The translations under genes and the position numbers were made by a program. Of a DNA stretch of 18,876 nt, positions 5,745-13,066 are shown in pieces; within the stretch, counting starts at the first letter, position 1, and every line of letters starts with the position of its first letter. The DNA is taken from NCBI GenBank assembly GCA_038858525.1, contig JAWCFL010000029.1, forward strand, positions 1-18,876. The letters are read 5' to 3'. Under the pieces are notes generated by a model. It ran no database searches. It had not been told where the DNA came from and was given only the letters and a program-made list of their open reading frames with translations. This stretch comes from Candidatus Jordarchaeales archaeon (GTDB lineage: Archaea; Asgardarchaeota; Jordiarchaeia; Jordiarchaeales; Freyrarchaeaceae).

Positions 5745-6902
5745 TTATTGTGGCGGCGCCAATACAGTTACCGTGGCTTTGGTGTCCGTCGTTGTTTTCC
5801 ATGTATTTAGTAGCTCCAAGCGCGCATACGATACTTTGGCTGGCGTGAATGAGGAATACGCTTTGGTCACGATTGGGAACGTGTTTGTACTCGTAACTGT
5901 GAATCTTTTGAGGGAGCTGTAAACCTCACCGTCAGGACCCAGACACAAAACCATGGCCGCAGGGTAATCTCCCGCCGAAAACGTCTCGGTGCTTCCAACC
6001 ACAACAATGTTCCCGTCATCGTCGACGGTAACGTCCTCAGCAAAGTCGTCGCCTTCTCCTCCATACGTCCTCTGCCATAGCGCATCCCCATACTCATTAA
6101 GCTTCAAAACCCAAACGTCACTTTTTCCAGCACCAAACGTCTCAGTGCTTCCAGCAACCACGATGTTTCTATCCTCATCAATAGCAACACTATGAGCTTC
6201 ATCGTTCTTTTTTCCTCCATAAGCCTTCTGCCAGACTATGTTCCCGTTTTCGTCCAGCTTCAAAACCCAGAAGTCTAAGCCGCCAGCACCAAAGGAGCCC
6301 GTGCTTCCAGCCACAATAATGTTTCTATCCTCATCAATAGCAACACTATGAGCTTCATCGTTATTTTTTCCTCCATACGCCTTCTGCCAGACTATGTCTC
6401 CGTCTTTGTCCAGCTTCAAAACCCAAACGTCTCTTTTTCCAGCTCCAAACGTCTCAGTGCTTCCAGCAACCACGATGTTTCCCTCACCATCAATAGCAAG
6501 ACAATTAGCCTCATTGTTACCTTTCCCTCGGCACGCCTTCTGCCAGACTATGTCTCCGTCTTTGTCCAGCTTCAAAACCCAAACGTCACTCTTCTTGCTG
6601 AAAGGAAAACGCTCGAGTCCAACAATCACGATGTTTCCCTCGTCGTCAACAGCAACCTTGCGAGCATCTTCATCCTCCTCTCCTCCATAAGCCTTCTGCC
6701 AGACTATGTCTCCGTCTTTGTCCAGCTTCAAAACCCAGAAGTCTAAGCCGCCAGCACCAAAGGAGCCCGTGCTTCCAGCCACAATAATGTTCCCTTCTTC
6801 GTCAAAGGCAACACTACCAGCAAAATCTACAGGAGCATTACGACGTCCTCCATATATTTTTACCCATTTATTTACAATACCCCCCCCACCAATTTTCACC
6901 AA
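5745..6902 (-). CDS. Beta-propeller repeat protein (six ~52-aa WxKxYGG...D..GNIVVAGST..FGAG..DxWVLKLD repeats) with a Thr-rich tail
   Basis: 385-aa ORF with six aligned repeats; AT-rich TATA-like element just upstream; no signal peptide evident. Confidence 0.88.
   Translation of the reverse strand: MVKIGGGGIVNKWVKIYGGRRNAPVDFAGSVAFDEEGNIIVAGSTGSFGAGGLDFWVLKLDKDGDIVWQKAYGGEEDEDARKVAVDDEGNIVIVGLERFPFSKKSDVWVLKLDKDGDIVWQKACRGKGNNEANCLAIDGEGNIVVAGSTETFGAGKRDVWVLKLDKDGDIVWQKAYGGKNNDEAHSVAIDEDRNIIVAGSTGSFGAGGLDFWVLKLDENGNIVWQKAYGGKKNDEAHSVAIDEDRNIVVAGSTETFGAGKSDVWVLKLNEYGDALWQRTYGGEGDDFAEDVTVDDDGNIVVVGSTETFSAGDYPAAMVLCLGPDGEVYSSLKRFTVTSTNTFPIVTKAYSSFTPAKVSYARLELLNTWKTTTDTKATVTVLAPPQ
5922..6866 (-). 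repeat. 156-bp period intragenic tandem repeats with identical sub-blocks
   Basis: CAGCTTCAAAACCCA recurs at 6255, 6411, 6567 and 6723. Identical blocks are 6252-6323 = 6720-6791 (72 bp) and 6163-6206 = 6319-6362 (44 bp). Confidence 0.92.
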
Positions 6903-9482: not shown

Positions 9483-10742
9483 CTACGGTTCCTTCAGCCA
9501 CTTCTTTATCTCTCCAACCCTATCCTTCGTCCAGCTCAAGTATATCTTGCCGCCTTTAACTTCAACCTCAGTACACTCCTTTAGCAATCCACTGTGGGCG
9601 AAAAAGTTCCTCTTAGCATCCGAGCTACCGCCAAGCCTGCCCTCCGCCTCACACCCAGCACTGTAAAGGTATAGAAGTCTCATCTTCCCTCTTATCTTCT
9701 CCTTCAGCTTCTCGATCATACGCAGCTCGTTGTCCAAGAAGTACTCGTTAACCGCAGCTCCAACACTCTTTTTCCTATATAGCTGCAGGAACACCCTGCG
9801 GATTTCCTCGATGCTCGGCTCGCTAAGTTCGCTCTTAAAGTTCTTGAATCCTCTGTAGAGCGCTATCGCGTAAAAAACATTCGAGACAGCCCTAAAGCTC
9901 AAAGGAATCCTCTTCCTCACAAAGCCATCGTCGGTCGACTCCAAAAGCTTGTTCAAAAACTCAATCACACCCCTCTCAACTTCATCCACATTCAAATCCA
10001 ACGTTAGGACTTCTTGAGTGTAGAAGGCGAGCGGAACATTATATTTAACAGCGTTGAAAGCCACTCGAAGCTCATCATACAACTTCCTAAAATCACTCTT
10101 AAAACCACTGTACTCTCTTCCGATAACCCCGGCTAACTTTCTGAACTCTTTATCAGCCTCCTCGTGAAGCAGCTTGTCAATGTCCGCCGTGGGAAGCAAG
10201 AAGAAAGCTCTTACAGAGAGCGGATGCAGCTCGATGCCAACCTCAGAAACACCCTTACCAATTGGGGGAGAAGAGGCAATCTCCACGCTAAACCCATCGC
10301 CCTCAGAAAGCTGCAAAATGTTCTCTAGCTCCCTATAAGTAGCATACCCCCTAGCCGCCTCAACCATAGCAACAACATACACGTTGTGACCAGTAGATAT
10401 GTCCACCACAAGACTATCAGGCCTCTTCCTCACGAAGCGAACGAAAATCGCGACAGCCACATCGTCAAACCCCGTCAAAAACCTCCTCCTAACCCCATTA
10501 ACATCATACTCCCCCACCGCTGGAATCAAAAACAACTCGAAATCCGTCAACCCCTTCCTCTCAACTCTCCCTCTAAAATCATTTAAATCGCTCACCAAGC
10601 TCTCAGGAGCAAGAAGCAAAACCTCTTCACCCAAAAACCTCCTTAAAGCCTCACAACTATAATACGTCTCCTCCACACGATCACCCAACCTATACCTCAC
10701 AGGACTATACTTATCCGGATCCCCCGAAACCTGAACTATCAC
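9483..10742 (-). CDS. csx1: Csx1-family CARF-HEPN ribonuclease (DxTHG-like), stand-alone in this window
   Basis: N-terminal SGDPDKYSPVRY, CARF motif VVDISTGHNVY and C-terminal HEPN KRNFFAHSG (RxxxxH). Probable GTG start at 10742 after GGGGGTG, with BRE/TATA-like GAAAGTTTATTTT about 40 bp upstream. Confidence 0.85.
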   Translation of the reverse strand: MIVQVSGDPDKYSPVRYRLGDRVEETYYSCEALRRFLGEEVLLLAPESLVSDLNDFRGRVERKGLTDFELFLIPAVGEYDVNGVRRRFLTGFDDVAVAIFVRFVRKRPDSLVVDISTGHNVYVVAMVEAARGYATYRELENILQLSEGDGFSVEIASSPPIGKGVSEVGIELHPLSVRAFFLLPTADIDKLLHEEADKEFRKLAGVIGREYSGFKSDFRKLYDELRVAFNAVKYNVPLAFYTQEVLTLDLNVDEVERGVIEFLNKLLESTDDGFVRKRIPLSFRAVSNVFYAIALYRGFKNFKSELSEPSIEEIRRVFLQLYRKKSVGAAVNEYFLDNELRMIEKLKEKIRGKMRLLYLYSAGCEAEGRLGGSSDAKRNFFAHSGLLKECTEVEVKGGKIYLSWTKDRVGEIKKWLKEP

Positions 10743-10907
10743 GACAACACCCCCAAACCCAAAAAAAAGAAACAAAGCAAAAAATAAACTTTCACCTAGA
10801 ATTACAAAAACAAGAAAACAACACTCAACCAGCAAAACAGGGCATAACTCACCCGAAAGAACGCTAAAAATTCAAGCGAAACCCAAACAACGCAAAAGCC
10901 ACGCCGC

Positions 10908-12212
10908 TCAACCCCCCACCTCGACCACTTCCACCCCCTGCTCCACCTCGCAGGCCTCCCTCAGCCTCTTGTCGCTCCTCAAACACACTATCACCGGCTT
11001 AGCTTTAACTCCACGGGTCTTAAAAAAGAAGTAGCGGTACGTCACCACCTGCCCTATCGCGTTATAATTAAGCTTCTCCTCAACCTCTACAATCCAAGTT
11101 TCGCAGTTCCTCCTATGCAAGACCGCGTCAGCCCTATAACCTTCCAACGGGTACTCCGTTGTAACCGAGTCGAACTCTTCCCCGTAAACGGAAAGAAATT
11201 TTTCGAATATCTCCCGCTCTTTCCCCCTCAAGGGGACATGGTGTGGTTCGGGCTTGAACCTTGACGCTTCGCAGACGTTCACAAGTGGGCAAAGGTGGCA
11301 CCTTGACTTCTCCAGCTCCTTAGCACAGTACCCCATTATTGAGACTCTGGAGAGCAGGTAATCATACTTCACAGGGTCATCCGGGTTCAACTCTCTCAGG
11401 AACCTTGTCGCATCGATGACGCCACGCCAGCTGAGCCCAACGTTAACCGAGAAAGCCCTCGACAACACCCTCCTCAAGCCATCATCCAGGGAAACGAGGA
11501 GGTGTCTTTTATCGATGAAGTTCCACAGGCTAAGATCGGGGTAGGGTCTAACCATCCACCTCATAAAAAGGTTTAAGCGTTTAAGGGCAGACGTGCACTT
11601 GACGGGGACTAGCGGTGGCCCACCACCATAACCGCTGAGTAGCTCTACAAGCCCAAAGACAACTCCCTCAACAGGCTCCTCTTTGCTCAATGAGTCCTCG
11701 TAAACTTCTTTTACGAAGGAGCCGAGTGAGCCTTTCTCCTCAATGATTCTCCTGAAAACTCTGAAAAGCTTGAATGTGTTGAAGCGCTTCTTAGGTCTAG
11801 AATACTCTTTCTCCTCAATGATTCTCCTGAAAACTCTGAAAAGAGAGACTACGTCGTCAAGCTTGACAAATCTATGCTTGAAACCTGTATTCCTGGCGCC
11901 TCCACCACTAACCCAGCTAAATCTGCCGAGCACCCTCCTAGCTAATCCATCATCATGAACAAGCTCAATGAACCTTAACCTCTTCTTCTCCATGAACTCA
12001 ACAAGCCCCATCAACATAGGTTTCAAGACGCCCATCACAGGCACCTGAAAATCCACCAACGCACAAAACAACACCCAAAACTCCCTGTCAACCTTGTTCT
12101 TGGCAGAGTAAATCCTAGCAGGGCCAAGAACGGATGACTCCAAATAGGAACCCTTCAAGCGCTCATAAGCTTCATCCAAAACTCCAACGATATATCCAAG
12201 ATCACCTTTCAT
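10908..12212 (-). CDS. DUF2400/TIGR02757-like (HhH-GPD-related) protein with CX8CX2CX5C motif, fused to a C-terminal PD-(D/E)xK nuclease-like domain
   Basis: SALKRLNLFMRWMVR, DLSLW, VSLDDGLRRV and LNPDDPVKYDY are family motifs. Cys motif at 11271-11327; EYP...RADAV...IVEVEEK...AIGQVVTY at the C-terminus. Confidence 0.8.
   Translation of the reverse strand: MKGDLGYIVGVLDEAYERLKGSYLESSVLGPARIYSAKNKVDREFWVLFCALVDFQVPVMGVLKPMLMGLVEFMEKKRLRFIELVHDDGLARRVLGRFSWVSGGGARNTGFKHRFVKLDDVVSLFRVFRRIIEEKEYSRPKKRFNTFKLFRVFRRIIEEKGSLGSFVKEVYEDSLSKEEPVEGVVFGLVELLSGYGGGPPLVPVKCTSALKRLNLFMRWMVRPYPDLSLWNFIDKRHLLVSLDDGLRRVLSRAFSVNVGLSWRGVIDATRFLRELNPDDPVKYDYLLSRVSIMGYCAKELEKSRCHLCPLVNVCEASRFKPEPHHVPLRGKEREIFEKFLSVYGEEFDSVTTEYPLEGYRADAVLHRRNCETWIVEVEEKLNYNAIGQVVTYRYFFFKTRGVKAKPVIVCLRSDKRLREACEVEQGVEVVEVGG
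11732..11843. repeat. Exact 37-bp direct repeat flanking a 38-bp unique insert (repeat-spacer-repeat), in frame inside the CDS
   Basis: CTTTCTCCTCAATGATTCTCCTGAAAACTCTGAAAAG occurs at 11732-11768 and 11807-11843. The insert CTTGAATGTGTTGAAGCGCTTCTTAGGTCTAGAATACT is at 11769-11806. Flanking bases differ on both sides. Confidence 0.95.
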
Positions 12213-13066
12213 ATGATTTGATATAAACCAGGTGAATGATAAATTAACTGTTTCGCGTAAGCCTGCTTCTAGCGCCCGGCTTCACCAGGCTTGAAAGGAA
12301 ACCATAATGGGCAGCGCGCCCTCCAAAGGGCCAATCCATTTCCTATAAAGAGGTTTCCATGAAGAGCGCGCGTCAACCATTCAGGTAAGCGCTTTTGGAG
12401 TGGCTTGCGGGTTGCTTGCTAGACGGATGCCGAAGATTTCTAGATGTGTTCCACGTTGAAAGAGCTAGTTTTAGATTTAATGGGTCTGGAAGGACTGCTT
12501 GTTTAGACATTGTGGGCGTTGTTCCTCCGGGTTTGAAGAAAATTCTCGAAAATTTGGTGACGTGCGCTTTGCTGGTTGCTTGATTCCGTGTAGGATGTTT
12601 TGGAAGGCACCAATGTTTGTTGCGCGTGTAGCCTCCTAGTAATGTTAATGTGATAGGTGTTTGGGGTCGGCGGGAATTGTCAGCCTGGATGCCTTAACTT
12701 TTGCTGGATGAGCTCTCATTGTGGGTTCGTCGTCCCTACGGCTTTCAAGTGAGGATGTTCCCCCGTTGGAACATTGCGTCTTGGCAATCAATGCTTAAGT
12801 TCTGTCAACACTGAAAGGTACGCTGTGAATTAGTCTCCCGGCGCTTCTTTTAGAGGCTTTCTGACGCCGCAGGGTGGTTGGAGGTGGCGCTGCCTGCTGG
12901 TCGACAAGTGTAAACTTGTTTGTCCTGCTCTAGATGCCGGAAAACCCCTATAGAACCCAATCCCCCTTCTGAATGGGAATGAAAAAATAAATTAAGGTTT
13001 AGGCTTTTTCGCGGCTTGCGAGGCTTTCAATGCTCACGGGTTTCTGTGTCTTGTTGCTTGGTTTTT

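Follow-up and report, generated by a model that had tools for sequence, protein, structure and literature searches.

How did an exact direct repeat with the length of a CRISPR repeat come to lie, around a spacer-sized stretch of unrelated DNA, inside an open protein-coding gene of a wild Asgard archaeon? The unit in question lies in a window (the whole stretch of DNA that was analysed, 18,876 bp) that constitutes the entire contig C29 of a draft genome comprising 63 contigs and 2.09 Mb. A first-pass annotation of this DNA had read the unit as the product of off-target integration by Cas1-Cas2. That reading is supported here by empty sites at the same position in relatives, by three sister scars elsewhere in the genome, by cas1-cas2-cas4 modules and CRISPR arrays of matching dimensions, and by the ends of the targets. 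From these lines of evidence we infer that the unit is very probably a scar that the host's own Cas1-Cas2(-Cas4) left in a single ectopic event of full-site spacer integration.

A repeat-insert-repeat unit within a DUF2400 gene

A repeat search in the one assembly identified two 37-mers that are 100% identical, spaced 75 bp apart, and separated by a 38-bp insert with no relation to the flanks; the complete unit spans 112 bp (11732–11843). The duplication measures exactly 37 bp, as the outer neighbouring bases of the two copies differ on each side, and an exact repeat of this length is not explicable by chance. The unit adds 25 codons, none of them a stop, to the minus-strand open reading frame at 10908–12212. 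Both the exact duplication around an unrelated insert and the in-frame gain of 75 bp had been claimed in the first-pass annotation, and the search recovered them at the same positions and with the same peptide; the neighbouring csx1 gene, which had been placed at about 1 kb, measures about 0.9 kb from the unit. The features concerned are as follows.

9483–10835, minus strand: csx1, encoding CARF and HEPN domains (PF09455, PF22230, TIGR01897)
10908–12212, minus strand: host gene, 434 aa, with a DUF2400/TIGR02757 domain fused at its C-terminal side to a NucS/EndoMS-like nuclease domain; the reading frame continues through the extra 75 bp
11732–11768: 37-bp target, copy 1; part of the original coding sequence of the DUF2400 gene, whose minus strand here encodes LFRVFRRIIEEK; single-copy in G002 and L022 (see below)
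11769–11806: insert of 38 bp, a spacer length; encodes EYSRPKKRFNTFK in the frame of the gene
11807–11843: 37-bp target, copy 2; 100% identical to copy 1

Related genomes carry the empty site

The orthologue in G002, a genome of the same genus, shares about 90% DNA identity with the host gene, contains a single 37-mer, and aligns to it with a clean 75-bp gap. A closer comparison is offered by L022, a contig of a different assembly (run SRR27170999) that is 99.0–99.5% identical to window positions 10491–12482 over 1.9 kb and that also carries a single 37-mer and no insert. Because scattered substitutions also separate L022 from the window, it represents another strain, as opposed to a second assembly of identical DNA. 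The protein encoded by L022, P0003, is the nearest homologue in the public collection; its 409 residues correspond to 434 minus 25, and it is 99% identical outside the insert. The second-nearest homologue, P0004, is 91% identical and is named Candidatus Jordarchaeales, which makes an Asgard archaeon of this group the probable host. When the homologues (394–450 aa) were aligned, residues 124–148 fell in a gap in 44 of 44 sequences, which are drawn from several archaeal lineages.

Given the empty sites in G002, L022, and the 44 homologues, the 75 bp represent a gain in this lineage and not a diverged ancestral feature. The first-pass annotation had proposed that the duplicated segment is native coding sequence and that orthologues would carry it once, with no insert; G002 and L022 are both of this form, and the 25 additional residues are absent from every aligned homologue. 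With the two copies still identical and a 99%-identical strain lacking the unit, the gain would appear to be recent.

Adaptation modules and CRISPR arrays of the host

The genome contains two adaptation modules, one on contig C33 and one on contig C50, each with cas1, cas2, and cas4; cas1 and cas2, on whose presence the off-target reading depends, are thus both represented twice. On C33, cas1, cas2, and cas4 lie ahead of type I-A genes (Cas7/Csa2, Cas5a, Cas3'), and on C50, cas4, two tandem cas1 genes, and cas2 adjoin the type III-B genes csx3, cmr2, and cmr3. The tandem cas1 open reading frames on C50 (8345–10229; L015:4346–6230) overlap; one matches Cas1 in full, the other weakly and in part. 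This pair is bordered on one side by cas2, csx3, cmr3, and cmr2, and on the other by cas4 and an A-rich run that continues to the contig end. Arrays were found at the following positions.

C33 and C34 (C33 1026–1515): 30-nt repeat, period 66
C33 1543–1802: 36/37-nt hairpin repeat, periods 76, 73, and 75
C49, very start: repeat of exactly 37 nt, periods 74 and 75, spacers of 37/38 nt

The two long repeats (36/37 nt and 37 nt) align with each other and form one family, and the spacers beside the 36/37-nt repeats measure 36–40 nt. The 37-bp duplication in the window therefore has the length of a host repeat (37 nt on C49, 36/37 nt on C33) and its 38-bp insert falls within the host spacer lengths, so that the correspondence in size that the first-pass annotation had left to be checked against this genome holds for both parts of the unit. 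Neither of the two 36/37-nt repeats was found in four relatives, and the arrays of those relatives were consequently unusable for fixing the repeat boundaries. A T-rich stretch at C33 1803–2200, located after the hairpin-repeat array and before cas1, reads on the minus strand as an A-rich leader. Contigs C49 and C50 probably join at the array start of C49, with C50 ending in an A-rich, leader-like run. Within C33 1026–1802 (L014), the 30-nt and 36/37-nt repeat families lie on one strand, 27 bp apart.

Three sister scars and the origin of the inserts

The whole genome (2.09 Mb) was scanned for direct repeats of all periods between 45 and 160. Singleton units with such a geometry numbered exactly four, with periods of 74, 75, 75, and 76 and none at any other period; the remaining matches were either CRISPR arrays or intragenic tandem repeats.

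C29, 11732: 37-bp duplication and 38-bp insert; the window's unit
C19, 18942–19053 (L011:2043–2154): 37-bp duplication and 38-bp insert
C34, 1919–2031 (L012:1919–2031): 37-bp duplication and 39-bp insert
C15, 37573–37685 (L010:2074–2186): 39-bp duplication and 35-bp insert

The scar on C15 leaves a Glu/Leu/Phe/Val dehydrogenase gene broken up into two reading frames and corresponds to a clean 74-bp empty site in G002. On C34, the scar occupies the 5' end of an MCM/AAA ATPase open reading frame, with a 30-nt-repeat array 1.4 kb away, and 5.8 kb separate the scar on C19 from another type I-A operon, the second in the genome (csaX, cas3'', cas3', cas5a). The C19 and C34 sites gave no alignment in the relatives, hence no empty-site comparison for these two. 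The observed duplication lengths of 37, 37, 37, and 39 bp are those expected if 37 bp were truly duplicated each time and the match ran on by chance at one of the sites; by our estimate, a true duplication of 36 bp fits them roughly 27 times less well.

The four inserts (35–39 bp) have no sequence in common, and no terminal inverted repeats were seen in them. The 38-bp insert on C19 is an exact copy of C50 9832–9869, a stretch within the genome's own cas1 with TTG and TGA as its two flanking triplets. This exact match to cas1 indicates that the inserts are probably captured, spacer-length fragments of DNA. An insert derived from cas1 is expected of a spacer-acquisition complex that samples the cell's own DNA, and neither a transposon nor replication slippage would readily produce one.

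For the window's 38-bp insert, the first-pass annotation had suggested a search for a source sequence with an adjacent PAM. No other copy was present in its own genome (blastn-short), no exact match in viral contigs, and no match in phage and plasmid collections (blastn, E up to 1); the insert was absent from 300 same-phylum genomes at up to three mismatches, and its 24-base core gave no match in JGI metagenome contigs. Across these own-genome, viral, phage, plasmid, same-phylum, and JGI sets, that search thus returned no protospacer or PAM match.

Two further loci were noted alongside these units. At C34 8275–8390, between unrelated flanks, the two copies of a 35-bp repeat differ by three mismatches and have a period of 72, with an insert of roughly 37 bp between them. 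This locus may represent either a mini-array or a scar old enough to have diverged. Another candidate, a unit of 72 bp on C40, was rejected as a scar: the repetition extends into its flanks, so that it is a plain tandem duplication. As to placement, three of the four scars lie less than 6 kb from a CRISPR-cas component (csx1, an array, and a type I-A operon, respectively), a post hoc count which may point to a preference for the surroundings of cas loci.

Ends of the putative integration targets

The last five bases of the three canonical repeats fit the pattern G[AC]AA[GC]. The 3' ends of the four targets compare with it as follows.

Window, minus strand: GAAAG; exact fit
C34: GGATTGAAAC; exact fit, and matching 9 of the 10 last bases of the hairpin repeat
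C15: GGAAG; not exact
C19: GGCAC; not exact

The ends on C15 and C19 are one or two changes away from the pattern. Two exact fits among four targets, counted in one orientation, would arise by chance with an estimated probability of about 4e-4, the pattern having been fixed beforehand from the arrays. Over its full length, the window's 37-mer is identical to the canonical repeats at 9–13 of 37 positions, which is within background, and the overall identity of all four targets likewise lies within the genome background.

Likeness to the repeat that is weak save at the target ends fits what is known of Pyrococcus furiosus Cas1-Cas2, which in vitro performs off-target full-site integration by paired attacks one repeat length apart, at sites that share few scattered positions with the repeat (43% identical at best) and for which a leader is not needed (PMC6698737). 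The two systems differ in that the P. furiosus attacks are 30 bp apart and were made on a plasmid in vitro, whereas the attacks proposed for this genome would be 37 bp apart, with their products fixed in the chromosome; moreover, what the targets share with the repeat here is, as far as shown, only a 3'-terminal GAAAG-like end, as opposed to the scattered positions of the P. furiosus sites.

Integration model and alternative explanations

In the model that we favour, one of the host's own Cas1-Cas2(-Cas4) integrases, loaded with a 38-bp prespacer, would have attacked the DUF2400 gene. Both strands would have been attacked 37 bp apart, which is the usual spacing of the complex across a 37-nt CRISPR repeat, and gap repair would then have copied the 37-bp target to either side of the spacer. 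With 75 bp being a multiple of three and the spacer containing no in-frame stop, the product would be a 25-residue insertion that consists of the repeated helix segment and 13 spacer-encoded residues.

The same repeat-spacer-repeat form would be expected of a working, newly seeded mini-CRISPR array (a neo-CRISPR locus) that is transcribed, cut by Cas6, and yields functional crRNA. The seeding of a new array had been put forward in the first-pass annotation, and it might also draw on the minus-strand end of the 37-mer, GAAAG, which resembles the end of the 3' handle of the hairpin repeat, and on the position of the unit inside a presumably transcribed gene with csx1 adjoining. The canonical hairpin repeat, however, folds strongly (−11.9 kcal/mol, z −4.3), whereas the window's 37-mer forms no stable hairpin on either strand (z 0.76 and −0.43), and its identity to the canonical repeats stays at the background level already described. 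The unit holds a single spacer, for which the searched sets contained no target, and no leader-like flank was seen beside it, unlike the A-rich leaders at the C33 and C50 loci. Because the 37-mer lacks the repeat hairpin and the unit has one spacer and no visible leader, we read it as a scar, in all likelihood an inert one; that it operates as an array is very unlikely, and the proposal of array seeding found no backing in these comparisons.

Besides spacer integration, the unit could have been made by the assembler and have no counterpart in the cell. The draft of 63 contigs does contain scaffold gaps flanked by duplicated stretches of 127–131 bp, and the near-identical contig L022, from another assembly, is without the insert. 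These known assembly artefacts nevertheless look different, being duplicates of about 127 bp around runs of N; the 112-bp unit is shorter than the 127-bp gap overlaps, which would make a join artefact unlikely; four units share one geometry, and it is that of the genome's own CRISPR arrays; and L022 is another strain by its scattered substitutions. We regard an assembly or scaffolding artefact as highly improbable. Direct repeats around inserted DNA would also be left by other routes in the cell: a tandem duplication whose copies later diverged, a miniature transposon that makes long target duplications, or an integrase of the casposon type. Against them, the 38 bp are wholly missing from the empty sites and hence there was no ancestral 75-bp tandem, the four inserts are mutually unrelated and show no terminal inverted repeats, and one of them is a plain 38-bp copy of cas1. 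Target duplications of insertion sequences span about 2–15 bp and those of casposons about 14–15 bp, so that 37 bp is too long for either. A mechanism of this group is extremely improbable, and ectopic spacer integration by the host's Cas1-Cas2(-Cas4) remains the reading that we adopt.

A wider exact-repeat scan, and only that scan, revealed about 30 pairs of exact duplicates of 127–135 bp that lie 227 bp apart around runs of about 100 N on many contigs (for example, C2:26920–27275). These period-227 duplicates are scaffold-gap artefacts, and their form suggests an assembly made with 127-mers.

Predicted effect on the encoded protein

The AlphaFold2 model of the 434-aa protein, built from 45 sequences, has an overall pLDDT of 90.2, which falls to 55–65 across residues 121–150 and below 50 at residues 140–144. 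In the model, the native helix (residues 149–160) is formed by the second copy of the duplicated segment, and the first copy together with the spacer-encoded residues gives a short, low-confidence helix and a loop. As modelled, the insertion is compatible with a tolerated surface excursion. We estimate the chance of an in-frame, stop-free outcome at roughly one in six; such a result is not improbable, and there is no need to invoke selection to account for it.

Relation to known off-target integration

Off-target integration by Cas1-Cas2 at repeat-length spacing, giving rise to 'neo-CRISPR' loci, is reported to occur in E. coli in vivo, with circumstantial natural candidates in two other species (Nivala, Shipman & Church, Nat Microbiol 2018). 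Whereas the process is well shown in the laboratory, its natural cases are few and circumstantial. The unit in the window resembles the loci described there in that a repeat-length duplication flanks a spacer-length insert, outside the arrays, in a genome that bears the integrase. It differs from them in belonging to a wild Asgard archaeon and not to an overexpression strain, and in being accompanied by others, with four events in a single genome, one spacer taken from the host's own cas1, and one event in frame within an open gene.

A second point of comparison is provided by the mini-CRISPR arrays and solitary repeat units carried by viruses and proviruses, whose repeats copy those of the host and arrive with the mobile element (PMC8616872, a review). 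Like these mini-arrays, the window's unit has one spacer between two repeats and lies away from cas genes; unlike them, its 'repeat' is the gene's own ancestral sequence, which occurs once in relatives. The scar in the window adds a natural example to a phenomenon that was already described, off-target integration by Cas1-Cas2. A de novo origin of mini-arrays by such off-target integration was reportedly proposed by Shmakov et al. in 2020.

What sets this genome apart is the combination of four clean events in one wild Asgard archaeon, a cas1-derived spacer, and an in-frame protein insertion. The outcomes extend from gene disruption to insertion into a protein, and empty-site alleles are known in close relatives. 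The four units constitute a natural data set on the targets that an archaeal integrase with a 37-bp ruler accepts and on the cost of sloppy adaptation to the host, and they also bear on possible origins of new arrays or of insertions in proteins. With the empty and filled alleles both in hand, substrates for an in vitro test are ready. A broader interpretation, which we put forward as speculative and rather doubtful, is that a bout of loose CRISPR adaptation left at least four scars in this genome, one of them from its own cas1, that proteins gain insertions in nature through spacer integration, and that the altered DUF2400-nuclease is still made and folded.

The host gene and its surroundings

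The host gene matches Pfam PF09674 (E 8.6e-25) and TIGR02757. Its DUF2400 domain is HhH-GPD-like and contains four conserved cysteines, three invariant and one nearly so, with the spacing of a glycosylase Fe-S loop. When the model was compared with known structures by Foldseek, 2vld, a NucS/EndoMS nuclease, proved similar to the C-terminal domain (E 3.6e-4), and the N-terminal part was weakly similar to MutY/OGG1. The whole 434-aa protein, taken as an exact sequence, has no record elsewhere in a look-up that may mask entries of its own genome, and a protein query of the genome-contig collection for related loci returned no relatives. A general association of the DUF2400-nuclease gene with CRISPR was considered and rejected, there being no cas neighbours at two distant homologues.

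Among the 12 window open reading frames that were scanned, csx1 is the only CRISPR-associated gene, a TnpB/Cas12f-like fragment aside; the ten others that were profiled besides csx1 and the host gene matched no cas family, save for the TNB domain of that fragment, at 1–657. The open reading frame at 1–657, with its Cas12f1/TnpB-like TNB domain, runs off the start of the contig and is probably a transposon-associated TnpB truncated there. Further into the window, a beta-propeller-repeat gene (5745–6902, minus strand) contains a 156-bp tandem repeat in four copies at 6100–6816.
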